This document shows, piece after piece, positions 3,457 through 64,000 of a stretch of 64,000 bases of DNA. Location: the IMG/VR virus record IMGVR_UViG_3300049988_000245, positions 192,001-256,000 of that record, one strand, 5' to 3'. The position numbers and the translations under genes are program-made. The stretch's first letter is position 1, and each line of letters opens with the position of its first letter. The DNA is from a virus (Duplodnaviria; Caudoviricetes). The notes beneath the pieces were generated by a model. It was not told the DNA's origin. It ran no database searches and worked only from the letters and a program-made list of their open reading frames with translations.

Positions 3457-3539
3457 TCTGATGGCCCACCAAATGAGCGTTTGACCAAATTGGTTGTACC
3501 AATTATGGTTAACGCTCTGGGGGGCCAGAAGGACGAATC

Positions 3540-3788
3540 ATGACCGATCCAAGGGCCGTGCTGCGCCGCAAGGTCCGCCTGTATGATGCCGACGACTTTT
3601 TCTGGGACGGTACGGTTACGGAGGTCGATGAGACCGCTCTAACCGCACAGGTCGATTACGGCGACTGGATTCAGATGTATCCGATTTCCGATTTGAAAAC
3701 CGTCTGGACAGAGGATGGCTCCTACGAGTGCGTATTGGTACCCCAGAGTTTTGGAACAGTGGTATCCGACTATCGCGAAACGATTTGA
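3540..3788 (+). CDS. hypothetical protein (SH3-like beta pattern)
   Basis: 82 aa with AAGGA RBS. Confidence 0.6.
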   Translation: MTDPRAVLRRKVRLYDADDFFWDGTVTEVDETALTAQVDYGDWIQMYPISDLKTVWTEDGSYECVLVPQSFGTVVSDYRETI

Positions 3789-3812
3789 CAAACTAACGAT
3801 TCGGTGTACTCT
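3785..3812 (+). promoter_or_regulatory. sigma70-like early promoter
   Basis: TTGACA-N16(...TCGGTG)-TACTCT upstream of rIIA. Confidence 0.65.
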
Positions 3813-3841
3813 GATGCGATCAACGGCATTTGAGAGGCACC

Positions 3842-47374: not shown

Positions 47375-47761
47375 ATGGCTGTTCCAACAACATACAAGGG
47401 CTTTAGCACGCAGGGTGCGGAACGCACTCGCCGCTGGACCCGGTTTGATGTTGAATTGGTCAAGACTGATCTTCTTAACCACTTCCATACGCGTATCGGT
47501 GAGCGCGTAATGCGGCCGGAATTCGGTTGCCGCATCTGGGACTACATGAATGAGCCGTTGACTCCGGCTCTTCGTCAAATGGTTATCGACGACGCGGTCA
47601 GAATCATTCAGAGTGATCCTCGTGTGTCTCTACGTACTGTCAACCTATTTGATTTCGAAAACGGCTTGAGAATCGAAATTCTAGTGGATTTTGTAGGTCT
47701 CGCCGAAAATCAATCTTTTTACATCGATTTTGAGAATCGTCAGAACGGCGGCGCGCTATGA
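47375..47761 (+). CDS. baseplate protein, T4 gp25-like
   Basis: DVELVKTDLLNHFHTRIGERVMRPEFGCRIWDYMNEP...IIQSDPRV. Confidence 0.9.
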   Translation: MAVPTTYKGFSTQGAERTRRWTRFDVELVKTDLLNHFHTRIGERVMRPEFGCRIWDYMNEPLTPALRQMVIDDAVRIIQSDPRVSLRTVNLFDFENGLRIEILVDFVGLAENQSFYIDFENRQNGGAL

Positions 47762-48438
47762 TGTTCCATGTCTATGAATTAGCTGACCCTACTGATGGGT
47801 CAGTGTTCTATGTCGGAAAAGGAAACGCTCGAAGAAAGCGTCTCAACGACCATATTCGACAGGGAGAACGTTTGATCGAAGGTAAATCTGTAAAGAATAG
47901 GATTTTAGCCGGTACGATCCGAGGCATCTTGGAGAAGGGTCTAGCGCCACTTTTCAATGTAATTTTTGAGTCAGAGGACGAAAACTTAATTCTGGCAATC
48001 GAAGTAGAATTAATCGCGAAATATGGTAGAATAAACACTGGTACCGGATGTCTTTCGAATCTTACTAATGGCGCTGAGGGCGCATGCGGCCTTAGGCATA
48101 CTGAAGAAAGCAAGTTAGCGATCGGTCGCGCAAGTAAAAGCAGAAAAATGTCAGATGCTGCAAGAGAGAAAATCCGAGTAGCGGCTACAGGCCGATCTCA
48201 CACTTTCGAATCGAAGCAGAAAATTGGCGAAAGATCGAAGTCACGAATTGTTAGTGAAGAAACTAAACTGAAGATATCTATAGCTGGTAAGGGGCGAGTG
48301 CTTAGCGAAGTAACTCGTTCCCGTATATCAGAAAGCAAAAAGGGTTCTAAGAACCCCCGATTCGGCAACTCTGAAAAGCTTAGTCAAAGTCACAGAGATG
48401 CAATTAAAATTTCTTGGATTGCTCGGAGAACAAAATGA
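47758..48438 (+). mobile_element. free-standing GIY-YIG homing endonuclease with NUMOD3-like repeats
   Basis: HVYELADP..GSVFYVGKG...R, E..LIAKYGR...G.L.NLT.G.EG, repeated HT.ESK.KI/SEETK.KIS; low GC. Confidence 0.88.
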
Positions 48439-51400
48439 GTCAGAGTGTGCGGCAGTCGGAGCTTTTTGCCGGTCAGGATTGGCAGGTGCTCTATAGAGCA
48501 TTCACCCAGATCAACTTCAATGCGTCTGACCCGGCTTCGATCAACGAAGCCCTGCGTAATTACATTCGTTCAAACTATGCGGAAGATTTCTCCGACTGGA
48601 TCGAATCGTCTGAGTTTATTGCGATCGTTGATCTGCTCTCGTACCTCGCTGGTACTCTGGCATTCAAGACCGACATCAACGCGCGCGAGAACTTTCTTGA
48701 GTCTGCTGAGGCTCGTGAGTCGATCCTGCGTTTGGCCCGCTTTCTCTCGTACAATCCGCGCCGCAATTATCCCGCCCGTGGCCTACTCAAGATTCAGGGC
48801 ATCCGCACGGATGACGACGTGTACGATTCGTCTGGTAACAACCTCCAGAATCGTCTCCTTACGTGGAACAACTCCGATGATCCGGATTGGTTCGAGCGCT
48901 TCGCTCTCGTCTTGAATTCGGCGTTCGTTTCCTCGCACCAGTTTGGCGCGCCGCTGAAGTCGGCCATCCTTGGTAGCGTCCGGACGCAGCTTTACCGGCT
49001 GAACGCACGATTCGGTGACTGTAACCTCGGATTCAACGCGAACGTCTCCGGCACCAATATGCCGTTCGAAATCTACAATCTCGATTTCGACGAGACCACC
49101 GGGTTCAACGAGCGTGCGCCGAATCTCGATTCGGCCATGCACTGCCTCTACCGTGCGGATGGTAATGGCGCAGATTCACCCAATACGGGCTTCTTCATGG
49201 GTTTCCGCCAGGGCACGCTTGCCTATGCGGAGACTACGATCTCACAGCCAACCGAGAATCAGGTGATTGACCTGAGCGTGGACAATATTAACGAGACCGA
49301 CGTATGGGTTCAGACGCTCAACGCGGACAACTCCCTACGTATCGATTGGACCAAGGTCCCGGCGATCTTCTCCGATAACATCACATTTAACTCGATCTCC
49401 CCGGACATCCGCTCGATCTACTCCGTGGTGACCCGAGACCGTGATCAGGTTAGCTTGCGCTTCTCCGATGGTCGATTCGGCGCCGCGCCGGTTGGTAAAA
49501 TGCGCTTCTGGTACCGTACTTCAAACGGTTACCAGTATCAGATTCGTACCTCCGACATGCAGGGGGTCACCGTTGCGATCCCATATCTGAATCGTCGCGG
49601 CATCCGTAAGACGATCACCCTCGTGTTGAGCCTGGAAGAGGCTGTGGCGAATGCCGCGACCCGTGAGACGGAAGAGCAGATTCGTCTTCGTGCGCCCCAG
49701 CTTTACGCGACCCAGGGTCGTATGGTCTCGGGCGAGGACTACAACACGTTCGCGCTCAAATCGAATCAGGCGACTAAGATCAAGGCGGTCAACCGCATCT
49801 ATTCGGGTCACTCCCGCTTCCTCGATCTAAACGATCCGACCGGCTCGTATCAGGACGTGAGTATGTTCTCCGACGACGGCCTATTCTACAAGGAACGGGT
49901 TAAGAATTATGCGGAAGTTCCGCTCACCGAGAACAAAACTCCCTCGGAGTTGACCACACTGTTCGTTCAGCCTGCGATGAAGCTGGTCGAAACCTACAAC
50001 GTGATTCAGGACTACATGATGCGTCAGGCCCGTTCGGGTCAGATTTCCATCCCGGCGGGTCTTGCTTGGATCAAGGCAACGGATAGCCTGTTTTCATCCA
50101 CCGGATGGTTCAACCAGGGCACACCGTTCCTGCGTGTCGGCTCAACCCTTCTGGTTCGGACCGGTCAGACCCAGCGTTGGGTCACGATCACGGCTGTTCG
50201 CGATGATCCCACACAGAGCGTCGAAGAGGGCGTCGAGGGACCCGTCACGTTGGCCGAGCCGATCGATTCTGGTTCGATCATCGTCGGCTGCGTCCCGTCG
50301 TTTTCCTCAACGATCCCGTCCGCCGTGATCGAGCAAATTCAGTCCCGAATCCTGACGTCAATCGGCTTCACGCTGTGGTACGATTACAACCCGCTGGATC
50401 AGCGTAGCTTCTGGTCGCTCCGCAACGCTGAGAACATCGACACGCAGCCCCAGGTGGTCGGTTCGGCCATCAAGGTATTCTCGTGCGAGTATCTGGCCGA
50501 TGCGATCTGGCGCTTCACCTCGCCGGGCCTGCGCTACACGTTCGAATCGATCAAGAACGTGCGCTTCTACTTCGATGGCGCCAAGGCGGTGGACTACTCG
50601 ACCGGCCAGACCCACTTTGACCGGATCAAGATTCTCAAGTACAACACTGACCTTCTCTCGGGTCTTGGTCTCGGCCGCGATTACGAACTCGCGGTCACCA
50701 AAACGATCACTTATTCGGACGGTTACGCCGATCCCCGCCGCGTCGCGGTGGAGTTCATCGACACCGATGGCGATGGGGTGCCGGATGATCCGGATACCTA
50801 CTACCGCGTAGTCGATCACTTTGCCCAGAACACCCTCCTGTTCTGGCAGCAGGACGCCGAAGGTCTGTACGCACCGTTCAACAACATGTGGGTGTATGAG
50901 CAGGAGACCGATCGGGTTAACTCCGGTGCCCCGCTGGGTACTGCCGCGTTTCAGATCAGTGGCGTCTCCCCAGAGACGTTCTGGTACAAGGGCGCCCAGG
51001 GTTGGGTTCAGCAGTTCCGCCTGTTCCGGTTTGCCCGTGGCCGTGGCTCGAATACCGCCGCGAAGTGGTTCGCAGGTGGCGGCACGGGTATCCCGACCCC
51101 AAAGGGCTCCTTGGTGAATTTCCAATGGAAGCATTACGCGCCGTCTGATCATCGTGTGGACCCGTCGAAGACAAACATCATCGACATGTTCATCCTCACG
51201 ACGGAGTACGATTTTCTTGTTCGCGAGTGGATCAGACAGGGTGCGGACCCGCTCAACCTGCCTGTAGCGCCGACTGAGCTTGAGCTTCGCACGACCTTCG
51301 GTCAGTACGAATCATTCAAGATGTTCTCTGACGAGATCGTTTGGCGCCCGGTTAAATACAAGTACCTATTCGGTACTGGTGCAGAGGACGCATTGAAGGC

Positions 51401-51728
51401 AACCTTCAAGGTGGTCAAGCTCCCGAACTCAAATATTTCGGACGGTGAGATTAAGGCGTACGTTGCCCGTGCGATCAACGCCTATTTTGCATCTGACTTC
51501 TGGGACTTTGGCGAAACCTTCTACTTTACCGAATTGGCCGCATACGTTCATCAGCAGCTATCCACCTCGATCGCCTCGATAGTCATCGTGCCGCGTGTCC
51601 AGAATGGATCGTTCGGTGATGGAATTGAAATCCGCTGCCGCCCTGATGAGATTTTCATTTCGACCGCTCAGGTCAACGATGTTACGATCATCGACTCTAA
51701 CACTCCGACGAATTTGAGAATGCGATAA
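48435..51728 (+). CDS. baseplate wedge protein, T4 gp6-like (jumbo-phage type)
   Basis: 1097 aa; DWQVLY..F..INF...NY.EDFSDWIESSEFIA..DLL.YL...NARENFL..AE.RES, RMVSGEDYN, WDFGETFYFTEL. Confidence 0.88.
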   Translation: MSQSVRQSELFAGQDWQVLYRAFTQINFNASDPASINEALRNYIRSNYAEDFSDWIESSEFIAIVDLLSYLAGTLAFKTDINARENFLESAEARESILRLARFLSYNPRRNYPARGLLKIQGIRTDDDVYDSSGNNLQNRLLTWNNSDDPDWFERFALVLNSAFVSSHQFGAPLKSAILGSVRTQLYRLNARFGDCNLGFNANVSGTNMPFEIYNLDFDETTGFNERAPNLDSAMHCLYRADGNGADSPNTGFFMGFRQGTLAYAETTISQPTENQVIDLSVDNINETDVWVQTLNADNSLRIDWTKVPAIFSDNITFNSISPDIRSIYSVVTRDRDQVSLRFSDGRFGAAPVGKMRFWYRTSNGYQYQIRTSDMQGVTVAIPYLNRRGIRKTITLVLSLEEAVANAATRETEEQIRLRAPQLYATQGRMVSGEDYNTFALKSNQATKIKAVNRIYSGHSRFLDLNDPTGSYQDVSMFSDDGLFYKERVKNYAEVPLTENKTPSELTTLFVQPAMKLVETYNVIQDYMMRQARSGQISIPAGLAWIKATDSLFSSTGWFNQGTPFLRVGSTLLVRTGQTQRWVTITAVRDDPTQSVEEGVEGPVTLAEPIDSGSIIVGCVPSFSSTIPSAVIEQIQSRILTSIGFTLWYDYNPLDQRSFWSLRNAENIDTQPQVVGSAIKVFSCEYLADAIWRFTSPGLRYTFESIKNVRFYFDGAKAVDYSTGQTHFDRIKILKYNTDLLSGLGLGRDYELAVTKTITYSDGYADPRRVAVEFIDTDGDGVPDDPDTYYRVVDHFAQNTLLFWQQDAEGLYAPFNNMWVYEQETDRVNSGAPLGTAAFQISGVSPETFWYKGAQGWVQQFRLFRFARGRGSNTAAKWFAGGGTGIPTPKGSLVNFQWKHYAPSDHRVDPSKTNIIDMFILTTEYDFLVREWIRQGADPLNLPVAPTELELRTTFGQYESFKMFSDEIVWRPVKYKYLFGTGAEDALKATFKVVKLPNSNISDGEIKAYVARAINAYFASDFWDFGETFYFTELAAYVHQQLSTSIASIVIVPRVQNGSFGDGIEIRCRPDEIFISTAQVNDVTIIDSNTPTNLRMR

Positions 51729-51729
51729 T

Positions 51730-54700
51730 ATGGACAAGCGTCGTTTTATTCAGCAGCTTCCTGAAGTACACAACACCGAGACTCTGAAGAAGTTCTTCGG
51801 GGCCACGGTGGACCAGATTTTCCAGCCGGGTTCTTCGGAGCAGCTTAGCGGATACATCGGTTCGAAGCCTGCATACTTTGATTCGGAGAAGGATTTTTAC
51901 CTGACCGAGCCAACAGCGATTCGTGCCGCGTATCAGTTCGATCCTGCCATGGTGTCCCAGGCGGAAAACGGCGACGTTACGAACATTCTCACGTACGACG
52001 ACTTTATGGCGTATCTCCGGGCTGAGAACGCGATCACCGTCGATCACGACCGCATGTTCGGCGACACCTCCTACGGATGGGTGCCACCGGTCGATCTGGA
52101 TAAGCTCGGAAACTATCGGCAGTATTACTGGTTCGGTGATCAGCCAAACCTCCTACCTCCGGTGGTGCTCAGCGTGAGCAACACCACGTATACCGCTGAC
52201 GGCCAGACCCACATCTTCGAGATGCCCTCCGCGATCGATGGCGTGTCGGCCGATCGCGAGACCCCGGCGGTGTTCGTCGATGGCCTTCCCGTGGAGATGC
52301 AGGTTGTCGGCCAGTCGGTCGCGCTCGTCGAGACCCCTGGTGCGGGCGCGTCCATCTGCGTGTTCCGTTACGCCGATCTTACGGCGGTGCTCGACGGGCA
52401 GGTAAACATCGATCCGCGCCTGTTTAATCCGGCCCTACCGATGGATCGTCTAACCTCGAACATGCGCCTACGACTGGAGGACGGTATCGCGTTCTTCCAG
52501 GGCTTCGGGCGCATGCCGTACGAGACCGTCTTCATCAAGATTCCCCGCCTGTGCCAGGAACGCTTCCAAGTGCCCTGGGACGAGTACACACGCCCGTCTG
52601 ACTTCTTCGTGGAAGGTGTTGGCTCGCGCATCGTCGTGGCGCCCTACCCCGCGCGTATGACGTACAAGGAGCATGACGCAACCTACACGGTGATCAACCG
52701 CCGTGACATCGCCCGTTCGCCCTGGGTGGTGAACAACTTCTGGGTCCACGAATCCGCATTTCGTTGGGCCGAGAAGAGCTTCCCGTCGCGTCGCGCCAAG
52801 CGCCCGATCGTGGAATTCCTGCCCAACCTCGAACTCATGAACTACGGGCTCCGTCCACTGGAGACCATCACTGGCACCCTCACGGGTGATCCCATGTACG
52901 TGCCGATCCTGCTCGACAAAGTCGATGCGACGAAGGGCATTTCCGATTGGGACGTGTACCCGTTCGACACCGAGACGTACGAGTCCAGCGGCATTCGCCC
53001 GATCCCGCTGATACAGACCAACGGCAAACTCGTCGGCCAGCTTTTCGTCGATGGCGGCAAGATGCTGAACTTCGGCGACCGTATCCTCGTGATTCAGAAC
53101 AGCTACCCCGAGCTTAGCGGGTCGATCCTGCGCGTCCGTCTCGGTACGCAGCCGATCACCGTAACCCTGCCCGATGGGACCACTCAGACGCAGACGCAAA
53201 GCGTGCTTGTGCTGGTTCCGGAGAAGGCCGCGATCCCCGGCGATACCGTTCGTCTGGAGCGCGGGCGCCTCGTCCCCTGGGATAAGGCCGCAGGCACGGA
53301 AAACTGGTTCATCTCTCACAACGGCAGCGACCGCCTGCCTTGGGAATTTCTGTCCGAGGCCGTCGAGTACCATTTTGATGGCACCGAAGGCGGAGACGGG
53401 TCCCTGTGGCGTGAGTCCCAGGCGCCGCATGCAGACCGTCGCGAGCCGCAGTTCGCTCTCTACACAGACGAGAAAGTGCGTTTGGACCGCCTACCCAATG
53501 GATCGTTCCTCGGCAACCGTCTGTTTGGCTACACCCCGGCGAACGAAGAGACGGGCCGTCTCGACGCCGCCCTTGGTCAGTACGTGATCTATGATTCGAA
53601 GGATGCGATTCAGTTCCGCTTCGATCAGGCAACCGAGCGCTACACCGCGAACGGTCAGCCCGTTGTGGGCTTCCAGTACTATCGCGTGTACGGACAGAAC
53701 GGTCAGCCTGATACCTACTCGAACTCCTGGCACGTCACGGGGGAGCGTTCGCACCAGACCCTCACCAACGGGCTATTTTCGACCCCTCAGAATCTCGTGG
53801 CCAACCCGAACAACGAAGAGGTCTCTACCGTATCGCGTCGCGACTGGCTTGAGAACTTCGCCAACGTGTTCATCCGCCAGGAGGGCTTTACCGGCTCCCC
53901 CTACAACATCAACAACTGGCGCGATTCCGCCCAGACCCCCGGCCTCGGCTTCAACGGCCCGGTCTGGCAGATGGGCCACGACTACGCGGTGGGTGATACC
54001 TGTAAGCACCTCAACAAGGTCTATCGCTGCACGCAAGCGCACACATCTAGTATTAGCTTCGACGTGCGCTATTGGGCGATTCGCCCGACCCACCAGATCG
54101 TGCAGAACAAGTCACCGCTTCTACGCACGATGCTGCTCGCCTCGGACAAGCGTTTCGACTACCTCGACGCGGTTCGCTACCTCGATGCCGAATATGCTCG
54201 ATTCCGCAACAAGTTCCGTGCTCAGACGATCGAAGTCCGTCGTACCGGCCAGTTGACCGATGCGAACGACCACGATGTATGGGTTGAGACGATTCTCAAC
54301 AATCTCAAGTTCACCAAGACGAACGACTTCCCGTTCTCGCTCTCCAGCATGGCGGGCGGTCAGTACTTCATTCCGCCAACTGCCGCTCAGATGGGCCTGC
54401 TCAACACATACGAGCCCACCTACGAGTACGATGACACCTATACTCCGGCGGCCCTGTTCCTGCGCGGCCATGACGGTTCACGCACGCCCGTGGTGGGCTC
54501 GTTCGAGGACGACATCCTGCTTGCCCTTGAGCGCCGTATCTGGGTGAACATCGTGCCGCAGTTCAAGTCCGAAGCCAAGCGCCCGTTCGACTTCTTTGGC
54601 CTGATCGACGGGCGAAACCGTGGTGACGGGAACGGCGACGAGACCAGTGCGGGTGATCCGAACCCGTGTGATAACGATCCGAATCCAATTGAAACCGGCC

Positions 54701-57700
54701 GCACTACCTATTCTCTGGCCGAAGTTGTGCGCGTCTACACGCCAGTCTTCCTGCGCTACGCTCAATTGAACGGGATCGATTACCGTTCGCACAAGGACTA
54801 CGTTGGCACTGATCCGTTTACGTTCAACTACCGGGACGAGAAGGATCGCGACGGAACCAAGATGCCGGGCAACTGGCGTGCAATCTACCGCTACTATTAC
54901 GACACCGATCGTCCTCATGCCTGCCCTTGGGAGATGCTTGGGTTTGGCCAGAAGCCGGTTTGGTGGGATGTGGAGTACGGTGTTGCCCCCTACACGAGCG
55001 GCAACGTCGCGATGTGGGAAGACCTCCGCGATGGGCGTATCCGCCAGGGCGTCCGCGCGGGCATCGACCCGCTATTCGTCCGCCCCGATCTGTTCGACGT
55101 CCTTCCGGTGACCGAGGATGGTCGCCTGCGTGATCCGTTGCAGATCGGTATCTTCGCCCAGGCCCCGTCCCCGGAGCTTGCCGCGCGTGATTGGCTCGTC
55201 GGTGATGGCGGCCCCGGTGAGCAGTTTTGGATGAACTCTGCGAGCTACCCGTTCGCGAAGTCTCAGATCGGCTACCTCCTACGCCCGGCCGAGTGGATCG
55301 AGGTAAATTGGGATTCGGAGTACTTCCGCTTCCTCGAAGATGGGCAGGCCATCAATACGCGTTCACACAACCGCACTCGTGCGGCCGAGAACGTCGTTCA
55401 CGGCGAGACCATCGACGCCCGCGCGGGAACGCGCTTTGCCATCCTCGGCGTGCAGCAGTGGGTCTCCGACCTTATGGCGTCGCGCGCGCAGTCACCGTCC
55501 CTGCTGGGTTCGGCCCTGCGTCGCATGCGCGTCCAGATGATGCACAAGATGGCTGGATTCACCAAGGCGGATAACCTGCGCGTGTTTGCGGACAACTTCG
55601 GGATCATCCCGGAGGAGGACGTGAGCGTGATCCTGCATAATTCTCCGCCAATCCGCGAATCCGTCTACTCCGGTGTGATCATCGAATGGACCGGTGACGG
55701 CTATCAGGTGATCGGCTACGACACGGTCAAGGAAGGCTTCTGCATCAATAAGGGCGACGAGACCTCGAAGCCCATCACGATCTCCCTTGGCGATGAGCCA
55801 CAGGTTTACGAGTGGCATTCGGGAATCTACTATGCGCTCAACACGCTGGTGGATTATCGCGGCTCGACCTACCGGGCGATTCTCGCGCATACCGCCTCGG
55901 CCGTGTTCGACGAGGAGTTCTGGACCCCCGAGCCGATCCGCCGGACCCGTTTTCCCAAGGTAACGGTATTCTCGCGCGGCGAAGGCACACTCACGTACGT
56001 ACCCTACTCGACCGTGTTTAAGACCTTGCAGGACGTGGCCTCGTTCCTGTGGGACTATGGTCGCGCGCTCGAAGACGACGGATTCGTGTTCGACTACATC
56101 GATCCGAAGACCGGCGATGTGGTCAATTGGGAACAGGCGATTCGCGAATTCCTGGCGTGGGCACAGACCGATTGGCAACCCGGAAACTTCATCGCACTCT
56201 CACCGGGTGCGAGCCAGTTGAAGTACATCACCAAGCACGGTGTGGTGTACAATGTCGAAGAGACCTCCAACGGCATCTATGGGCTGCTGAACCGCACAGG
56301 TACGCCGCTCCCGACCCGTCAGACCTTCGTTTCGCGTCTCGACGAAGAGACCAAGGTGATCACGATCTCGAACGATCTGTTCTGTGCGCGTCTGCGCGTG
56401 GGTGAGATCGAGCACATCGTGTTGTTCTCGAACAAGACTATCTTTGGCGATGTCATCTATGCGCCGCTTCTGAATCTGCGTCAGTCTCGCCTGCGCCTCC
56501 TGGGTATGCGGACGAAGAATTGGACCGGTCGTCTCGATGCGCCCGGCTACATGGTCGAAGGAAACACGACGCAGCCGAACTTCTGGCGCGCGGCCGAAAA
56601 CCTTCGAACGATGTTCGACGTGGAAGGCTCGGAGGATCGTGACCTTCGTGACTTCTCCCGCCACCTCCTGGGATACCAGAAGCGCCCGTATCTGGACAAC
56701 CTGCTGGTCTCCGAGACTGAGCAGTTCGAGTTCTACCAGGGCATGATCAAGCAGAAGGGCACGCCCGGTTCGTTTGAGAAGCTGACCCGTTCGCAGTTGA
56801 TCGACCGTCAGTCGGACCTCGCATTCCTTGAGGAATGGGGATTCAACGTCGGTCGCTTCGGTGCGGTAGACAAGAGCCGCCGCGTATCGTTCATGCTCAC
56901 CAGAACGGATATGCGCTCGAATCCACAGTTGATCGAGTTCGGTCGTGACAACCAGTTCGACGCGATCGTTGGTCTCCCCGATGATTCGTCCCGTTGGGTG
57001 GAGAAGCCCGCAAACGTAAATCAGGTGTTCCCAGAGCGTCAGCTTATCGTTGACGTGTCCGGTTCGGGCTCGCCCATCACCCGTCCGTACGCGCGCGATC
57101 TCCACACGTCCGGTCCCGTGCGGATCAGCGAAATCACCCACACGATTGCGAACCCGGCACTCGCCGACAAGCTGTTCACCGATGTGACCGCGCGAGGCGA
57201 CGAATTCTCTCCGAACGATCGCATCTGGGTGTATGAACTCGGGTTGTCCGAGCGTCGCTGGAGTGTTTTCCGGTTCGATCTCGTGGGCAAGAACGAGGCA
57301 ACCCCGCTGGTGGCCGTCGAGGCAATGGACGCGGGTGACGACAACACGCCGTTCTCCGGCCTGACCCGTTTGACCTTCCTCCAGTTCCACGGCCTCGACG
57401 AGGGCGATATCGGAAGCCTACTCCTGATTCCAAACTCCATCAGTGGAGATTCGGATGTGGAAGGATTCCATCAGATCATCGCGATCGAAGACGCCTACTC
57501 GATTGTCATCCCGTATGCGATTGATCCGAATTACAACTACAAGCAGCCATTCTGCATGGTTCTGCGCTCAGTTCGATTCCGCACGATTGCGGATCGGAAT
57601 CTGTTCGATACCAAGTACGGTTTCGTCGCGGGCGAACTCGCCTACGTCGATCATGTGCCGGGCTTCGCCGGTTGGGTGGTGTTCCGCTACGACGGTTCGG

Positions 57701-60700
57701 CATTCAACCTGTACCGGCAGCAGCCCCCGCGCATCGACTCCGATCGCCTGCGCAACACCCTGATCTATGACCTCAACACGAAGGTCACCGATGCGTCCCT
57801 TCAGGCGCAGCCGCTGAGCTATGACGAATTCACCGTCGTTGATCCAATCTCCGGTAACGTCTCGGGTGAGGCTGAGCGGGAAATCACCTTCCGGGTGGAT
57901 TACGACCCGGCACAGTACATCGAGCTTTCTGAACAGTGGGGCGCATCGCACGTCGGTGAACTCTGGTGGGACACGCTGACCTCCATCTTCCTCGATACCA
58001 GCACGGATATCGTGACGACCACGGATGATCCGCGTCGCCTTGAGCGCGAGATGACCTACCGCTCGCAGAATTGGGGCAAGGTCGCTCCGGGTTGCTCCGT
58101 CGATGTCTACGAGTGGACCCGTTCGTTCGACCCGCCCACGGCCGAGCAACTGGTTCGTAACCGCACGACTGATTTCACGTTTTTCAACGAGTTCGATCCG
58201 GCTCTGAACAAGATCGTCGTGGCCTACTACTTCTGGGTCCGTAATCCCACGGTGACCCCGAACGTGAAGGGTCGTTCGCTCTCGGCCGCCCAGGTGGCCA
58301 AGATGATCGAGGACCCGCGCGCGGCGGATGTCGCCTGGATCGCCCCGATCGCCCCCAACGCGATGCTCCTTTGCAACGCGGAGGAATTCCTCAACGACAC
58401 CGGCACGGTAGTGCAGTTCGAACTCACTGATGACGCCTATGATGGCGTTAACCATGAGCAGTTCGCGCTCGTCCGCAAGGGCGACCCGGATAGCCTGCCG
58501 CCGAAGCCGCTCCTCACGACGCTGCGCAACTCCATCACGGAGTTCGACGACTTCATTCGTCCGGTGCCGGAAGGTGGCCTCGGTGCGTTCGGTTCGGTTG
58601 GGGCAACCCGTCGTTCGCGTCGCACGATGATCGCCAATGGTCGCTCGGGTGTGCTCGCTGCGCGCCAGTCGTTCATCACCAAGCTGAATGAAATTCTTGG
58701 GCGTTCTCCGCTGCTCGTGGATCAGCCGTCCGCGCTGGAAGAGCTTACCCTGGAATCCCCCGTGTACGAGAAGCTGATCTGGAATCAGCCGCCCGGCACG
58801 GATTGGATCGACGTGCCGCCGCGCGGCTCGTATGACTTCGTCGTCAACGGCCTCGAAGAGCGCCGCGTCCTCCTTACGACGGCGGAATACCTTGCCGCGT
58901 GCGGATTCTCCGGATGGGATACGTTCAAGTACGACACCACCGGCTGGGATTACGACTTCGGCGTGACCGTGGCGGACCTCGCCAAGAACCGCCTGCCGCG
59001 CGTGCTCATGACCAATTACACGGCCGAGCAGCCCGGTTGGAGCATCTGGGAGGGCAAGGTCTCGGTTCGCGGCCCAACCCCGCAGACGGTTATCACGATC
59101 ACCGATACGCCGCTGTCCAACATCGGTCCGATTGCCCGCGACGACGCGTTCTCGGTCACCTCGGGCCAGTCGTGGACCCTAACGGCTGCGTCGCTGTCGA
59201 ACAACGATACCGATCAAGACAACGACATCCTCACGGTGGTCAGCGTTGGACCGGCCCCAGAAGGCTCAGGCGTGGTCACTCAGGTGGCGCCCGGCACGTG
59301 GCTGTACCAGAGCGCCCCCGATGTGATCGGACGCGTCCTGATCCCCTACGTGGTCGCTGACGGCAAGGGTGGCGTGGCAAGCGCATACGCGATCTTCACC
59401 CTGACTCCGCCGGAGGTGATCAAGGCGGTCCAAGACACCTACTCAGCCGAAGTGAACACTCCTCTGGTGATTCGCGTTTCCGACCTGCTTGCGAACGATA
59501 TCGGTGATGACATCGTAGTGGTGTCGGTGACCCAGCCGTTGAACGGTGGATTCGTGACGTTCGAGAACAGTGCGGTTGTCTACAATCCTCCGGTCAATTC
59601 GCCGGAAACGGATGACCTATTCACCTACACGATTCGGTCCGCCTCCGGCCGTCTCTCGAACACCACGGTTCTCGTCACCTTGGCGGCGTCTCGGATCGCT
59701 GCGGCAGATGACTACACCGCGACCAACTACGGCGCGACCCTCACGATTCCCTACACGACCATCCTCGCCAACGATTCCGGCGAAGGTATCGTGGTGGATT
59801 CGATCGGGGTGCCCCTGTATGGCGCCGCCGTCATGCGCGATGATGGAATTCGCTATACCGCTCCGGCGGTGAAGACTACGGGTGATCGAATCAACCCGGT
59901 AGCCGATGCGATCCCCTACACGATTCGTGACAAGTTCAACCAGACGACCTCCGCCAAGGTGGTGATCAGCTTTATCAGGCCGCGCATCGAAGCGTTCAAG
60001 GATGAGACCTCGGTCAATTATGGGGCCAAGACCAATGTGGGGTTCTCCACAATCCTGTCGAACGACGTGGGCCAAAACATCATCGTAACCGGTATCTCGA
60101 AGGCTCCCGCGTATGGGACAGCCCGGATGACACCGGTCGGCATCGAGTATATCGCTCCGGCGTACTCGATCAAGGATGGGTTTACACCTGTAAGTGACGT
60201 GCTCAAGTATACAATCGTCGATCCTTTCGGTCAGACTTCTGAGGCTGAGATTCGTTTCAACTTCACTTCGCCCCCACGGATCAATGCGGCTGACGACGAG
60301 TACACGATCAATTACGGTGCCTCGCTCAACCTCCCCGCAAATTCCGTCATGGCAAACGACGCAGGGCGCGACATCCGTATCACCGCGATCGGTCAAGCCC
60401 GCTATGGCGTGGCTACGCTGACGGATACGGGAATCTCATACGTGGCTCCAGCATTCAGTCCAGCCGGTAATCCCCCAAGCGACACCTTCACCTATTCGAT
60501 CGCCGACACGTTCGGTCAGACCGCTCAGGCGTCAATTGTCGTGAACTTCCTGCGCCCGGCTGGTATCAAGGCAAACGACGACTACTTCAGCGTAGTTCGC
60601 AAAAGTCGAAGTGTTATTCAAGCAAACGATGACGTTCTCATCCTCGGAAACGTAGTTGGGCAGGGTCGTCGTGGCACGAAGGTGGTTCACGGCAGCGATA

Positions 60701-61221
60701 CAGCTTCCAGTGTAATTAGCGGGAACACGCTAACGGTGCTCGGTGTAACTTGTGAGTTTAATCCAGAGTCTAACCTTAGTTCTGCACTGAGTGCGTTTAA
60801 TAGTAGCTTTGATGCGATTCAGGAAGGTCTATTCATGCTGATCACTAACGATCAGGACTTGGAGATTTTTGATCCGTCGCTTCCTGGCTCTGTTAGCCTT
60901 GTGATTCGAGCCCCGGTTCCGCCTACTGGATCATTGCCTGCGGACCTATTCGGAGCTACCGTGACCACAACGGAAACTTCTTTGCCAAGCTCAGTCGAGT
61001 TTACGTATGATCAGTTAATGGAGAACGATACGCATACATTGCCAATCGAAGTAATCTCGGTAGGTGTCGAGGGCTTGCGAATGTTCCCCTTGCCTAACGG
61101 GCGTGGTTACCGCTATGTTGGACTTGGATATCAAGAGGCGTTTACCTTCCCGTATACGATTCGCGATACGTCCGGAGCAACATCTACGGCGAACGTTACG
61201 ATCTATCCCGGTCTAGGTTAA
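51730..61221 (+). CDS. giant baseplate/virion structural protein (gp7-like jumbo-phage type) ending in an Ig-like repeat array
   Basis: 3163 aa; TLKKFFGATVDQIF, QFEFYQGMIKQKGT, EEWGF.VG.FG, YFWV; two CBM5/12-like motifs; C-terminal Big_9/cadherin-like repeats. Confidence 0.85.
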   Translation: MDKRRFIQQLPEVHNTETLKKFFGATVDQIFQPGSSEQLSGYIGSKPAYFDSEKDFYLTEPTAIRAAYQFDPAMVSQAENGDVTNILTYDDFMAYLRAENAITVDHDRMFGDTSYGWVPPVDLDKLGNYRQYYWFGDQPNLLPPVVLSVSNTTYTADGQTHIFEMPSAIDGVSADRETPAVFVDGLPVEMQVVGQSVALVETPGAGASICVFRYADLTAVLDGQVNIDPRLFNPALPMDRLTSNMRLRLEDGIAFFQGFGRMPYETVFIKIPRLCQERFQVPWDEYTRPSDFFVEGVGSRIVVAPYPARMTYKEHDATYTVINRRDIARSPWVVNNFWVHESAFRWAEKSFPSRRAKRPIVEFLPNLELMNYGLRPLETITGTLTGDPMYVPILLDKVDATKGISDWDVYPFDTETYESSGIRPIPLIQTNGKLVGQLFVDGGKMLNFGDRILVIQNSYPELSGSILRVRLGTQPITVTLPDGTTQTQTQSVLVLVPEKAAIPGDTVRLERGRLVPWDKAAGTENWFISHNGSDRLPWEFLSEAVEYHFDGTEGGDGSLWRESQAPHADRREPQFALYTDEKVRLDRLPNGSFLGNRLFGYTPANEETGRLDAALGQYVIYDSKDAIQFRFDQATERYTANGQPVVGFQYYRVYGQNGQPDTYSNSWHVTGERSHQTLTNGLFSTPQNLVANPNNEEVSTVSRRDWLENFANVFIRQEGFTGSPYNINNWRDSAQTPGLGFNGPVWQMGHDYAVGDTCKHLNKVYRCTQAHTSSISFDVRYWAIRPTHQIVQNKSPLLRTMLLASDKRFDYLDAVRYLDAEYARFRNKFRAQTIEVRRTGQLTDANDHDVWVETILNNLKFTKTNDFPFSLSSMAGGQYFIPPTAAQMGLLNTYEPTYEYDDTYTPAALFLRGHDGSRTPVVGSFEDDILLALERRIWVNIVPQFKSEAKRPFDFFGLIDGRNRGDGNGDETSAGDPNPCDNDPNPIETGRTTYSLAEVVRVYTPVFLRYAQLNGIDYRSHKDYVGTDPFTFNYRDEKDRDGTKMPGNWRAIYRYYYDTDRPHACPWEMLGFGQKPVWWDVEYGVAPYTSGNVAMWEDLRDGRIRQGVRAGIDPLFVRPDLFDVLPVTEDGRLRDPLQIGIFAQAPSPELAARDWLVGDGGPGEQFWMNSASYPFAKSQIGYLLRPAEWIEVNWDSEYFRFLEDGQAINTRSHNRTRAAENVVHGETIDARAGTRFAILGVQQWVSDLMASRAQSPSLLGSALRRMRVQMMHKMAGFTKADNLRVFADNFGIIPEEDVSVILHNSPPIRESVYSGVIIEWTGDGYQVIGYDTVKEGFCINKGDETSKPITISLGDEPQVYEWHSGIYYALNTLVDYRGSTYRAILAHTASAVFDEEFWTPEPIRRTRFPKVTVFSRGEGTLTYVPYSTVFKTLQDVASFLWDYGRALEDDGFVFDYIDPKTGDVVNWEQAIREFLAWAQTDWQPGNFIALSPGASQLKYITKHGVVYNVEETSNGIYGLLNRTGTPLPTRQTFVSRLDEETKVITISNDLFCARLRVGEIEHIVLFSNKTIFGDVIYAPLLNLRQSRLRLLGMRTKNWTGRLDAPGYMVEGNTTQPNFWRAAENLRTMFDVEGSEDRDLRDFSRHLLGYQKRPYLDNLLVSETEQFEFYQGMIKQKGTPGSFEKLTRSQLIDRQSDLAFLEEWGFNVGRFGAVDKSRRVSFMLTRTDMRSNPQLIEFGRDNQFDAIVGLPDDSSRWVEKPANVNQVFPERQLIVDVSGSGSPITRPYARDLHTSGPVRISEITHTIANPALADKLFTDVTARGDEFSPNDRIWVYELGLSERRWSVFRFDLVGKNEATPLVAVEAMDAGDDNTPFSGLTRLTFLQFHGLDEGDIGSLLLIPNSISGDSDVEGFHQIIAIEDAYSIVIPYAIDPNYNYKQPFCMVLRSVRFRTIADRNLFDTKYGFVAGELAYVDHVPGFAGWVVFRYDGSAFNLYRQQPPRIDSDRLRNTLIYDLNTKVTDASLQAQPLSYDEFTVVDPISGNVSGEAEREITFRVDYDPAQYIELSEQWGASHVGELWWDTLTSIFLDTSTDIVTTTDDPRRLEREMTYRSQNWGKVAPGCSVDVYEWTRSFDPPTAEQLVRNRTTDFTFFNEFDPALNKIVVAYYFWVRNPTVTPNVKGRSLSAAQVAKMIEDPRAADVAWIAPIAPNAMLLCNAEEFLNDTGTVVQFELTDDAYDGVNHEQFALVRKGDPDSLPPKPLLTTLRNSITEFDDFIRPVPEGGLGAFGSVGATRRSRRTMIANGRSGVLAARQSFITKLNEILGRSPLLVDQPSALEELTLESPVYEKLIWNQPPGTDWIDVPPRGSYDFVVNGLEERRVLLTTAEYLAACGFSGWDTFKYDTTGWDYDFGVTVADLAKNRLPRVLMTNYTAEQPGWSIWEGKVSVRGPTPQTVITITDTPLSNIGPIARDDAFSVTSGQSWTLTAASLSNNDTDQDNDILTVVSVGPAPEGSGVVTQVAPGTWLYQSAPDVIGRVLIPYVVADGKGGVASAYAIFTLTPPEVIKAVQDTYSAEVNTPLVIRVSDLLANDIGDDIVVVSVTQPLNGGFVTFENSAVVYNPPVNSPETDDLFTYTIRSASGRLSNTTVLVTLAASRIAAADDYTATNYGATLTIPYTTILANDSGEGIVVDSIGVPLYGAAVMRDDGIRYTAPAVKTTGDRINPVADAIPYTIRDKFNQTTSAKVVISFIRPRIEAFKDETSVNYGAKTNVGFSTILSNDVGQNIIVTGISKAPAYGTARMTPVGIEYIAPAYSIKDGFTPVSDVLKYTIVDPFGQTSEAEIRFNFTSPPRINAADDEYTINYGASLNLPANSVMANDAGRDIRITAIGQARYGVATLTDTGISYVAPAFSPAGNPPSDTFTYSIADTFGQTAQASIVVNFLRPAGIKANDDYFSVVRKSRSVIQANDDVLILGNVVGQGRRGTKVVHGSDTASSVISGNTLTVLGVTCEFNPESNLSSALSAFNSSFDAIQEGLFMLITNDQDLEIFDPSLPGSVSLVIRAPVPPTGSLPADLFGATVTTTETSLPSSVEFTYDQLMENDTHTLPIEVISVGVEGLRMFPLPNGRGYRYVGLGYQEAFTFPYTIRDTSGATSTANVTIYPGLG
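59131..61218 (+). repeat. six Ig-like/cadherin-like (Big_9-type) repeats, the sixth interrupted
   Basis: I.A.DD...LANDxG...YTI.D..G..S.A.V units starting at 59131, 59419, 59695, 59986, 60280, 60565. Confidence 0.85.
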
Positions 61222-61226
61222 AAGAA

Positions 61227-61252
61227 AACTGGTGGGTTTGGCCCCACCAGTT
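61227..61252. terminator. hairpin terminator after the giant gene
   Basis: AACTGGTGGG / CCCACCAGTT 10-bp stem, 6-nt loop, AT-rich flanks. Confidence 0.75.
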
Positions 61253-61264
61253 ATATGATTCCGC

Positions 61265-61320
61265 AGTCAATCATAGTATTTTAGATGGGCTTAAATCCCA
61301 TCATAAATACTATGATTACT
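61265..61320. promoter_or_regulatory. long inverted repeat containing a late-promoter core (ATAAATA 61303-09)
   Basis: arms AATCATAGTATTT-TA-GATGGG / CCCATC-AT-AAATACTATGATT, 7-nt loop. Confidence 0.7.
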
Positions 61321-61335
61321 GTTTCGGAGTTATAA

Positions 61336-64000
61336 ATGGCTACGTACGACCCGTCGAATGCTGTGGTTCAGGCTGTGGCGCTCAATGGAAATAATATTTC
61401 ATTGACGGCGACCTCCGTGTCTGCGGCAACGCAGTCCGTCAAAAACACCACGGCGAACGTGATTCTACCTTATACGACCACGGTGGTGTCGGACGAGGAG
61501 TTGCGAATCTCCCAGCAGTATGACGTAGAGGTTCCGGATCGGGCGTCTCTTATCCTCAAAGCAGCGGATAAAACCTACAATATTGGTCAGCGTATTCTTG
61601 TTCGAAACGATGAGCGCCTGAATGGTTTCTGGTCTATTTGGGTCTACGCGCCCGATGCCGAGACGGCGGATTCAAACGGCCTCGTGTTTGAGGATGTGCA
61701 GACCTTTCGGACCTCGGACTTCTTCGACGTAGTTGATTGGTATGCGGAAGGTTACAGCGCGGCCCAGCCGCCAGCATTGTCTTATCAGACCGTAGAATCT
61801 CGAAATCTTAGTGAAGGACCAAACCCGGTTAACACGTGGGTGCAAGTCAACGACGACGCTGGTGCCTGGGCTTGGTATGCGTTTGAGAACGGCGCTTGGA
61901 TTCTTGTCGCGCGCGAAAAAAGTACAATTCAGTTCAAGAAAGATTTCTATGATCCAGACCGCGTTGTATACGGGGTCGAAACACGTGATGTCTCAACGAT
62001 TAACAACCGAGACGGCTCTTGGGAGCTTCGTGCACTATTCAATGCACTAAAGACGACCGTGCTGAGTACGTCGCAGATCAACGAGTTGTTCTTCTCGATG
62101 CTGCACTTCATCCACTCGCAGCAGGATCAGGTCGATTGGGCGTTCAAGACCAGCTTCCTGTCGGTGATCGGCTACAACGAACACCTCGCACAGACGCCGA
62201 TCCAGGCTTACGACACGACTCAGAACCTGCTCGACTACATCGACGAGGTCAAGCCGTACCGGGTGAAGACGCGTGACTTCAAGCGCATTCTGACGCCTCC
62301 AACGGATCAGCTAAATGCCCACGCTACGGACTTCGATCGCCCGCAGTACCTTGATCCAGCAACGAACGCATATCGTCGTCTTTCTTTCCTAAATCAAGAC
62401 CTGCCGCTAGTACGAAGCACCTCTCCGTGGAAGGACTGGTTTGCCAACTATACAAAGACGGATCACGACAACCCGGCCTCGACCAATTTCAACCCGGTTC
62501 GAAATTTCCGGATTAAGATTCTTTTCGATCGTATCGACCCTGAGTCGATCCCGTTCAATTCAGGCGGCGGCTGGGATATCCCGCCGTGGGATGTGCTCGG
62601 CTGGGATGGCGACGAAAGCAATTTTGAGACTGGCGGTGGTGCCCAGGCACGTATTCTGGCCTATTATGAGCCAACCCTCGGGATGATCGGGAAAGAGCCC
62701 GAGGAACTTATGGCGGGCATGGGATTCCGTGGCGTGTCCACGGATGGTCTAGACCTACTTGTATATCCGGACGATGCTAGTGAATGGGATGTTCGCCCGT
62801 ACGATACGGTCGGCACGGACCTTCGAATTACAAAGGATAAGGACAATACAATCGACGGCTACCAAGGCTCTAAAATCGAAGTCACGATGAATGATGACTC
62901 CGAATATTATGGCCTGCGCGATCCTTATCACGAGAAGGGTCATCCGGAAGAATTAATCCCCGTCCAAGGAAACGAGGCAGTCACCTTAGTCGTCCACACG
63001 GAATGGTCTATTGGTGCACCCAACCACTTTGTCACCCATCTTGCGACGAAGAAGGTTCGCCGCAACACTGTTCGGATTCCATTCCATGGAATTGCCTCTA
63101 CTGCCTCGGCCGTGATGGTTTTCATCGACGGGCGCTGCGGAGTCGAAGGCCCGGACTACTCGGTAAATCTCTCCGATGGGTACGTGGATGTGGTTCTCCC
63201 TCGTCAGCGTCCAGAATACGTCATGGTGCACGCGTTTGGCGCGGGCGGTAACGCTCGGATCATCGAGCAGGTTTTTACCCAGGCGGACGGTTTGACGGGG
63301 ACGTACGAACTCGCCAGAGACCCCGTAGGATCGGTAGAATTGACCCTGGACGGCAAAGTCCTCGATCGCGGGCAGTTCGACGTGTCCGGGCGTGCCGTGA
63401 CGCTCCACGAGCTTCCTGCGAAGGGCGTGCCTGTTCTGATTCTTTCGTTCGACGCACCGGTCGGTCAAACCCCGGCAACCCATGTCATCCATGAGGTGCT
63501 GGCATACGATCCGGGCCAGTCCTGGGCTCTTGCCCATCTTACCCAAGTGGGCAGTCCAGTCGATCACATGGGAACGATCGTCAATGTGGACGGATACCGA
63601 CTGGCGCCACCGATCACCAGCCAAAATATCATCGTATCTCAGCGTCAGTTCGTAAGTTTCCACCTGATAAGCGACGTGCAGAATCTTTCAATTTGGCTTG
63701 ACGGTGTTCCGTATAATCAGACGATCACCACGATCGATCGTTCAGTTCTTGATCCACAGGATACCACACTTCCTGTCGGTATCTATGTGGTGGACGACGA
63801 ATTGTTCGTAAACGATCCGGATGCGGTGGGAAAGATTATGCTTTCCGTACTGTTTGAGAATCATGACTACGAGATCGTCAATAGCATTTTGCAGATCACA
63901 AAGCCGCTTAAATCAACGGCAAGGATCGTGACAACATCTTTCCAGAATGCCGAGTATATGGGTGTTGAGACGTACGTTTTCTCGGGTAACGGTCGAGGAA
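61336..64000 (+). CDS. giant baseplate/virion protein, second part (partial; runs off window; missing from ORF track)
   Basis: GGAG RBS, ATG 61336; I translated frame +1 to the end with no stop (888 codons); VVDWYAEGY, QVDWAFKTSFL, LLDYIDEVKPYRVKTRDF. Confidence 0.85.
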   Translation, partial: MATYDPSNAVVQAVALNGNNISLTATSVSAATQSVKNTTANVILPYTTTVVSDEELRISQQYDVEVPDRASLILKAADKTYNIGQRILVRNDERLNGFWSIWVYAPDAETADSNGLVFEDVQTFRTSDFFDVVDWYAEGYSAAQPPALSYQTVESRNLSEGPNPVNTWVQVNDDAGAWAWYAFENGAWILVAREKSTIQFKKDFYDPDRVVYGVETRDVSTINNRDGSWELRALFNALKTTVLSTSQINELFFSMLHFIHSQQDQVDWAFKTSFLSVIGYNEHLAQTPIQAYDTTQNLLDYIDEVKPYRVKTRDFKRILTPPTDQLNAHATDFDRPQYLDPATNAYRRLSFLNQDLPLVRSTSPWKDWFANYTKTDHDNPASTNFNPVRNFRIKILFDRIDPESIPFNSGGGWDIPPWDVLGWDGDESNFETGGGAQARILAYYEPTLGMIGKEPEELMAGMGFRGVSTDGLDLLVYPDDASEWDVRPYDTVGTDLRITKDKDNTIDGYQGSKIEVTMNDDSEYYGLRDPYHEKGHPEELIPVQGNEAVTLVVHTEWSIGAPNHFVTHLATKKVRRNTVRIPFHGIASTASAVMVFIDGRCGVEGPDYSVNLSDGYVDVVLPRQRPEYVMVHAFGAGGNARIIEQVFTQADGLTGTYELARDPVGSVELTLDGKVLDRGQFDVSGRAVTLHELPAKGVPVLILSFDAPVGQTPATHVIHEVLAYDPGQSWALAHLTQVGSPVDHMGTIVNVDGYRLAPPITSQNIIVSQRQFVSFHLISDVQNLSIWLDGVPYNQTITTIDRSVLDPQDTTLPVGIYVVDDELFVNDPDAVGKIMLSVLFENHDYEIVNSILQITKPLKSTARIVTTSFQNAEYMGVETYVFSGNGRG

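Follow-up and report, generated by a model that had tools for sequence, protein, structure and literature searches.

A probable old fission of a giant phage baseplate gene at a linker now followed by an immunoglobulin-like repeat array

Introduction

Giant baseplate proteins of 3000–4900 residues are a hallmark of the RaK2-, PA5oct-, and Atu_ph07-like jumbo phages and are barely described; in Atu_ph07 and AP-J-162, the protein is listed only as a "structural protein" (PMC6102473, PMC11242549). The present analysis concerns a member of this family near the end of a 64,000-nucleotide (nt) stretch of DNA, hereafter the window (positions 192,001 to 256,000 of the virus record IMGVR_UViG_3300049988_000245). 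The window belongs to a 265,895-bp viral contig, which was assembled from a metagenome and judged to be 57% complete. The family is represented there by two open reading frames (ORFs), ORF A (51730–61221, + strand, 3163 amino acids [aa]) and ORF B (from 61336, + strand, in the same frame as ORF A), the second of which is 1240 aa long in the full contig and extends 1059 nt past the end of the window.

T4 Hoc and the immunoglobulin (Ig)-like domains on phage tail and head proteins are Ig modules carried by structural proteins and thought to bind surface carbohydrates weakly. Such domains have reportedly been surveyed by Fraser and colleagues. The giant protein family and the Ig decoration of phage particles are therefore both already known. 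The apparent novelty lies in fission that recurs at specific sites of this family and is coupled to Ig or adhesin modules, and in a pre-existing pair of junction modules, M1 and M2, which frames one of the cuts; a literature search for gene fission in phage baseplates found no paper. We consider it likely that an old fission of one giant baseplate gene gave rise to ORF A and ORF B, in which the pre-existing linker between M1 and M2 was cut, an Ig array was added, and the two halves continued to dock.

Results

Both ORFs match consecutive parts of the profile phrog_10938 (3324 positions), ORF A at positions 665–2131 (1095 bits, E = 0) and ORF B at positions 2253–2483 (149–150 bits, E ~1e-43), and both match the same 88 phage records. 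In relatives, a single annotated gene of 3326–4555 codons follows the wedge gene (Phosso, 4555 aa; Atu_ph07, 4449 aa; PA5oct, 3857 aa; GAP32, 3341 aa; RaK2, 3326 aa). The PA5oct protein carries the annotation "ESI-MS/MS," which denotes mass spectrometric detection in virions of PA5oct, not of the window phage. Alignment to RaK2-, GAP32-, and Atu_ph07-like homologues, suggested by the original prediction made from the sequence of the window, found one continuous protein in each. The motifs which that prediction had ascribed to single giant jumbo-phage proteins are indeed conserved there (DWAFKTSFL and VKPY(R/H)), as is VDWYAxGY. The two ORFs are neighbours that share a strand and do not overlap, and together they cover a homologue that is uncut at this point: ORF A to residue 2441 corresponds to protein P0011 up to residue 602, and ORF B from residue 46 corresponds to P0011 from residue 608. 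Homologues of the first 415 conserved residues of ORF B that exceed 2170 aa number 255 in a large protein collection; 120 metagenomic members of this set were retrieved, and the N-terminal 450 residues of ORF A are also present in 112 of them. No close relatives were found in IMG/VR with ORF B peptide patterns. A C-half homologue of 1656 aa, P0040, is recorded on a contig of 1,136,180 bp; this contig is from a very large phage or else is bacterial and carries such a gene.

The boundary between the two ORFs falls between two related modules. M1 (58828–59052, + strand; ORF A aa 2367–2441, SYDFVV...RVLMTN...GWSIWE, with a W/D-rich insert) was delimited by alignments and lies at the end of the conserved part of ORF A, while M2 occupies aa 57–104 of ORF B (61504–61647). 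The two are homologous at the profile level (hhalign probability 96.7%, E 3.5e-10, 47 columns), as the original prediction had proposed from their likeness; pairwise BLAST is weak (E = 5), and no DNA repeat is left between them. The motifs it had quoted were found at 58828 (SYDFVVNGLEER), 58999 (RVLMTN), and 59035 (GWSIW) in ORF A and at 61516 (QYDVEVPDRAS), 61591 (RILVRN), 61624 (GFWSIW), 62131 (VDWAFKTSFL), and 62230 (LDYIDEVKPYR) in ORF B. The module had been thought to be duplicated by the Ig insertion, but M1, the linker, and M2 stand in tandem in one chain in every examined relative that is uncut here (P0011, P0013, the fused proteins P0053–P0057, and the whole group cut at another site, S2), and the duplication is therefore older than the cut. 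The M1–M2 linker is exposed, ~20–30 residues long, and rich in Pro, Gly, and Asp; in P0053–P0057, the tandem is uninterrupted and lacks Big_9. Since ORF A of the window retains the first residues of the linker (SVRGPTPQ) and ORF B the last (EELRISQ, before QYDVEV), the cut lies exactly within it. The interval from the AARxSF helix to VDWYAxGY is a variable spot of the family, with no module in PA5oct, one in Phosso and Atu_ph07, an unrelated insert in RaK2, and two modules in the wider clade of the window. In a structural model of the P0011 junction (predicted local distance difference test score [pLDDT] 72.9), both modules are strand-helix-hairpin; Foldseek found no PDB match to this model at E ≤ 0.001 and listed only look-alikes among small domains, for example the collagen XVIII trimerisation domain. 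The ORF B leader (aa 1–60) and the leaders of relatives match no Pfam family, so the leader of ORF B is not demonstrable as a remnant of an Ig domain.

Beyond M1, ORF A switches from baseplate-type to Ig-type sequence at aa 2442–2456 (59053–59095) and then runs to its stop, as the original prediction had described. The Ig tail (aa 2442–3163; 59053–61218, + strand) is recognised by the Pfam families Big_9, Cadherin_4, and Cadherin_5 and by a repeat map. Big_9 (PF17963) scores 131.3 bits against a Pfam gathering cut-off of 23.6, in five stretches from aa ~2455. A custom hidden Markov model resolves five strong repeats, R1–R5, at aa 2456–2556, 2566–2650, 2653–2744, 2755–2837, and 2853–2935 (59095–60534), and two weak ones. 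The strong repeats are followed by a divergent tip segment at aa 2946–3076 (~60565–60957) and by a last, weaker Big_9-like repeat at aa 3077–3158 (~60958–61203), which is sub-threshold in Pfam; the six repeats originally counted were thus about right. For the tip itself, Pfam gives only sub-threshold Big_9, and a feature search of the ESM Atlas was uninformative (≤0.83). No tandem repeats were found in the tail at the DNA level. Its nearest non-phage matches are bacterial tandem-95 or cadherin-like giant adhesins at ~30% identity (25–35% over several repeats). Measured against the nearest relative, identity declines from 77% (core) through 53% (R1–R2) and 36–41% (R3–R5) to 26–27% (tip). Strain variants at aa 2969–3087 are 3 synonymous and 9 non-synonymous relative to a silage-metagenome strain, and the G+C content of the tip segment is 0.49–0.51, as compared to 0.56 for the genome. 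These three features suit a fibre with a host-contacting tip; the tip (60565–60957) is a candidate determinant of host range, and the tail with its tip a candidate element of host recognition.

Complex prediction with A 2275–2450 and B 40–400 supports the view that the two halves still dock as one unit. The interface score from aligned errors (ipSAE) was 0.83, a value attained in 58 of 80 solved complexes and in 2 of 110 mismatched pairs; the best of three controls reached 0.00; runs agreed in at least 62% of contacts, with a partner pLDDT of at least 67. Recall of a known complex is unlikely, since neither ORF has a related solved structure by sequence. In the model, helices at A 2305–2350 pack on B 120–138 and 190–258, and the cut ends (A 2438–2445 and B 50–62) are in contact, as expected if a surface linker of one folded unit had been opened.

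By sequence comparison, the cut at the window's site, S3, is old and common to a few relatives (at least four other contigs) rather than private to the window phage. The proteins that share it are only 37–54% identical, consistent with an old event. In the relatives L004, L005, and L009, the C half begins 10–99 residues before M2. The gene upstream in L004 and L005 is an N half ending in Big_9 repeats, while in the short L009 contig the N half lies beyond the contig end; one to three free-standing genes beginning with Big_9 repeats stand between the halves in all three. A fourth N half, P0174, has the same architecture. The original prediction had regarded homologues in two genes with the same boundary as evidence against fission; such homologues are found in these nearest relatives, but the deeper comparisons below still point to fission.

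The family is cut at two further sites. S1 (L006 and L007) lies at about A 1930–1988, upstream of the window's cut, and its C genes, P0011 and P0013, are uninterrupted across the latter (A 1988–2441 corresponds to P0011 125–602, and B 46–1226 to P0011 608–1766). A significant Big_9 repeat opens P0013, and a sub-threshold Big_9 fragment opens P0011. Phosso (L001:1084–14751) and Atu_ph07 (L002:1036–14385) carry an in-frame Gly-rich-repeat insert of ~1480 aa between A 1756 and 1964, the site of the cut in L006 and L007, so one site takes either in-frame inserts or fissions. S2, at about A 2275–2285, is found in a clade of 25 proteins, and the genes between its halves are He_PIG, Gly_rich_2, or opposite-strand Adhesin_E-like. 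The Adhesin_E-like gene of L014 (9132–9878, on a contig of ~170 kb) stands in this position on the opposite strand, between split baseplate halves.

These arrangements bear on the order of events at S3. The linker may first have been cut by one or more inserted adhesin genes, as at S2, with a Big_9 gene fused to the N half later through loss of its start and of the preceding stop; in that case the Ig tail would have been joined on secondarily and would not have caused the cut. We regard this order as possible but doubtful. The N halves of L013 and L015 stop shortly past the conserved part, where the next gene, which is Ig-like (He_PIG, and in L015 also a faint Big_9 match), overlaps them by 4–8 nt, one small change from fusion; the free-standing genes of L004, L005, and L009 begin with Big_9 repeats like those of ORF A, as this order would have it. 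However, all four known S3 N halves (the window, P0172, P0174, and P0178) carry the array in frame, starting at one and the same linker residue, and an intermediate in which a short N half ends at S3 was not found.

The direction of change was read from a quick tree of 167 proteins, built on the conserved core of ORF B and rooted on RaK2 and GAP32, on which an approximately unbiased (AU) test was run. Fused proteins (120 of the 167) form the backbone and include all outgroups, and the split forms branch from within fused clades; fission is therefore the derived state. The window falls in a starred clade of four split forms with P0006, P0008, and P0009 (Shimodaira–Hasegawa-like approximate likelihood ratio test [SH-aLRT] 99), and the nearest further neighbours of this clade include the fused P0053, P0055, and P0056. 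Counted on the starred branches, at least eight changes of state are needed, although some may be truncated gene calls. In the AU test, a single clade for the six forms cut at S3 was not rejected (p = 0.19). Together with the consecutive matches to one profile and the single gene of relatives, the fused backbone bears out the fission proposed originally. The reverse polarity, by which the two-gene state would be ancestral and the single giant genes of cultured jumbo phages would have arisen by fusion, is improbable. Split forms are numerous (47 homologues of 682–2170 aa, of which 27 form one clade, with 25 cut at S2 and 2 further upstream), but they are nested as described, and in the nearest fused relatives the short linker is intact and without a scar. 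Moreover, the three cut sites are mutually exclusive and each lineage is continuous across the cuts of the others. A split ancestor would need many more events, and by far the simplest account starts from a single gene that was cut several times independently.

ORF A ends in a TAA stop (61219–61221, + strand), the first of three in-frame stops in the 114-nt spacer before ORF B. The stop is followed by a G+C-rich, terminator-like hairpin (61227–61252, + strand; 10-bp stem, 6-nt loop), with similar hairpins after the N-half genes of L004 and L005, and then by a long imperfect hairpin (61257–61333, + strand), a palindrome recovered in the RNA fold, which holds CATAAATA in its 3′ arm and whose outer stem pairs with GGAG. 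Folding of 61216–61345, with both hairpins, gave a minimum free energy of −55.8 kcal/mol (z −8.3). CATAAATA lies at 61302–61309, 34 nt before the ORF B ATG, and GGAG at 61326–61329. The consensus octamer of T4-type late promoters is TATAAATA, and either TATAAATA or CATAAATA is present 20–35 nt ahead of the starts of several further genes of this genome. The late-promoter-like CATAAATA is conserved in L004 and L009, where the CATAAATACTATGAT...GGAG block and its upstream complementary arm are conserved at the nucleotide level despite the low protein identity noted above; L005 has a weaker form (GATAAATATTATAC). Across a small sample of four sequences, and with a structure derived from the window itself, 76% of cells of the long hairpin were paired as compared to 34–53% in slid controls, and six pairs had changed on both sides. 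The second half, predicted to be expressed independently from a late promoter, has a promoter-like element and a ribosome-binding site of its own, both conserved in relatives. The long hairpin also looks like a T4-style arrangement in which read-through RNA is translationally silent.

It is very improbable that the halves are rejoined in expression, whether by stop-codon read-through, by ribosome hopping of the T4 gene 60 type, or by protein splicing. The shared frame (61336 − 51730 = 9606 = 3 × 3202) and a hairpin close behind the stop would suit such a process. Against it stand the three in-frame stops within 114 nt, the conserved ribosome-binding site and promoter-like element of ORF B, and the lack of a matching landing codon near the ORF B start; no intein family was matched in Pfam. 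Relatives, furthermore, have one to three whole genes between the halves, and in L014 a gene on the opposite strand stands there.

The original prediction had also called for a check of the assembly at 59.0–61.4 kb. Contigs from four public runs, covering leaf and silage metagenomes of three studies (one run is possibly the source sample), were aligned to 58500–61900; none of the public runs listed was an RNA run with this sequence. A silage contig, ~1% divergent, covers 58500–59609 across the switch into Ig sequence, while contigs of two other runs cover 61039–61340 and 61179–61660, spanning the stop, the spacer, and the ORF B start. No indels or joints were found in these bridging contigs at the switch or in the stop-spacer-start region; with both junctions bridged by independent contigs, mis-assembly is ruled out at the assembly level. 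Strain variants are 14 synonymous to 1 non-synonymous in R1–R5 and 9 to 1 at the ORF B start, and the only spacer variant (61241) lies in the loop of the first hairpin. The bridging contigs and the mostly synonymous variation exclude mis-assembly, sequencing error, and recent decay as far as assemblies show. In runs X2 and X3, contigs of co-occurring relatives match the promoter block (61251–61330) and differ upstream, one with a different terminator hairpin, which suggests that several members of the phage group are present in the same leaf samples. That the split reflects mis-assembly, sequencing error, or a recent nonsense mutation making a pseudogene of ORF A or ORF B is hardly credible, for although the contig is an incomplete metagenome assembly and repeats can mislead assemblers, contigs of other studies bridge 58500–59609 and 61179–61660 cleanly, the tail lacks DNA-level tandem repeats, both ORFs vary mostly synonymously, the spacer combines three in-frame stops with a conserved promoter-like element and ribosome-binding site, and the same layout recurs in relatives only 37–54% identical.

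The upstream neighbour of ORF A is a gp6-like baseplate wedge subunit of 1104 aa (48414–51728, + strand; phrog_10646 "baseplate wedge subunit," E = 0, and phrog_219), whose stop (51728) adjoins the start of ORF A (51730); the wedge-then-giant gene order is also seen in Phosso, Atu_ph07, RaK2, PA5oct, and GAP32. Directly upstream of the wedge gene, within the baseplate module, a 226-aa ORF (47758–48438) matches homing-endonuclease PHROGs (phrog_314, E 1e-15). The conserved part of ORF A (aa 1–2441; 51730–59052, + strand) comprises the N-terminal and middle parts of the giant protein and is collinear with Phosso 28–1693 and 3170–3490 and with RaK2 604–2141. Within it are two CBM_5_12 modules (chitin-binding type 3; 49.8 bits in Pfam), at 53965–54050 (aa 746–773) and near 55870 (aa ~1381), and many fused relatives also carry them. 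ORF B, the C-terminal part (61336–64000 and beyond the window, + strand), begins with a lineage-specific leader (aa 1–45), which precedes M2 and then a core with VDWYAEGY, VDWAFKTSFL, and LDYIDEVKPYR. It is collinear with Phosso 3640–4047 as well as with P0011 608–1766.

Discussion

The most likely history begins with a single chain in which M1 and M2 stood in tandem, joined by an exposed Pro/Gly/Asp-rich linker. In the common ancestor of the window phage and a few metagenomic relatives, a Big_9 adhesin-type array would have been placed in frame after M1, ending in a stop, and the remainder of the chain (the linker end and M2 onward) would have gained a short new leader, a ribosome-binding site, and a T4-type late-promoter-like element. 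The two polypeptides, we infer, still assemble as one unit, given the predicted packing of A 2305–2350 on the ORF B core and the adjacent ends of the cut linker. The Ig array would then exit the baseplate at the cut point as a free-ended fibre of ~720 residues, chain termination providing its free distal end, and the fastest-varying distal tip would probably contact the host surface. In other lineages, the family would have been cut independently at other linkers, each time beside Ig-like or adhesin-like genes. More tentatively, the exposed linkers of the giant baseplate protein might be recurrent landing sites for host-range cassettes (Ig arrays and adhesin genes), with each cut giving a free, fast-evolving tip. 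The hairpin might hide the C-half ribosome-binding site in read-through RNA, such that the C half would be translated only from its own transcript and the amounts of the two halves would be uncoupled.

Several points weigh against this history or limit it. In neither tree are the two S3 subgroups sisters, P0011 and P0013 standing between them (SH-aLRT 85–90), and a single origin of the S3 cut is for this reason at best "not rejected." The order of events accommodates both insertion of the cassette first and a cut first with later Big_9 fusion. The baseplate identity is argued from synteny and the annotations of relatives, and the identification with T4 gp7 from gene order only; no gp7 match was obtained by sequence or fold, phmmer against all PDB chains giving no hit for either ORF, and Foldseek and VIA-align with a model of A 1–450 (pLDDT 75.6) giving no gp7 but only an Ig-like sandwich at 147–253 (Z up to 6.5). 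The adhesin role suggested for the Ig tail is drawn by analogy, and the strain variants were taken from low-depth contigs. The alignments behind the complex prediction contain fused relatives, and its calibration is only rough. Separate polypeptides, promoter, and terminator are predictions from sequence. Of the terminator in the original prediction, the hairpin is present (61227–61252), but its T-run is weak on the + strand, and the scanner called it on the − strand.

The locus and its relatives portray a protein made of blocks on exposed linkers, in which the linkers have repeatedly taken up Ig-type adhesin modules and the chain tolerates cuts at several of them. If the linkers are indeed landing sites for such cassettes, the family would amount to nature's own set of experiments in protein splitting, in which three or more cut sites have proved viable in a baseplate protein of more than 3000 residues. 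For structural biology, the cuts offer natural domain boundaries for expressing and solving pieces, along with a predicted docking interface. For annotation, they carry a warning: the "missing" halves of such genes may sit one to four genes downstream.

Among known systems, the closest are the giant proteins of RaK2 (ORF070, 3326 aa), PA5oct (gp355, 3857 aa), and Atu_ph07 (gp180, 4449 aa), which are homologous along both ORFs in the same order, occupy the same place after the wedge gene, and have CBM_5_12. These are single polypeptides without a Big_9 tail, whereas the window phage has two genes. Closer still in layout, L004, L005, and L009, together with P0172, P0174, and P0178, share the boundary within a few residues and the Big_9 tail on the N half. 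L004 and L009 also have CATAAATACTATGAT with an inverted repeat before the C half, and L005 the weaker form GATAAATATTATAC. Between the halves, these same-cut relatives have one to three additional free-standing genes beginning with Big_9 repeats, where the window phage has none; the tails differ in length (~490–740 aa), and their tips are barely alignable. Like the gene of T4 gp7, the giant gene follows gp25-like and gp6-like genes (L007), with neighbours annotated as wedge subunits, although the giant protein is three to four times larger. Bacterial giant adhesins built from tandem-95, Big_9, or Cadherin_4/5 repeats are secreted or lie on the cell surface, whereas the array of the window is a C-terminal extension of a phage baseplate protein. 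Finally, as compared to Ig display of the T4 Hoc type, the array is long, with five to seven domains and a tip; its place is the baseplate, and instead of being an in-line domain or a frameshift extension it is coupled to the fission of a gene.

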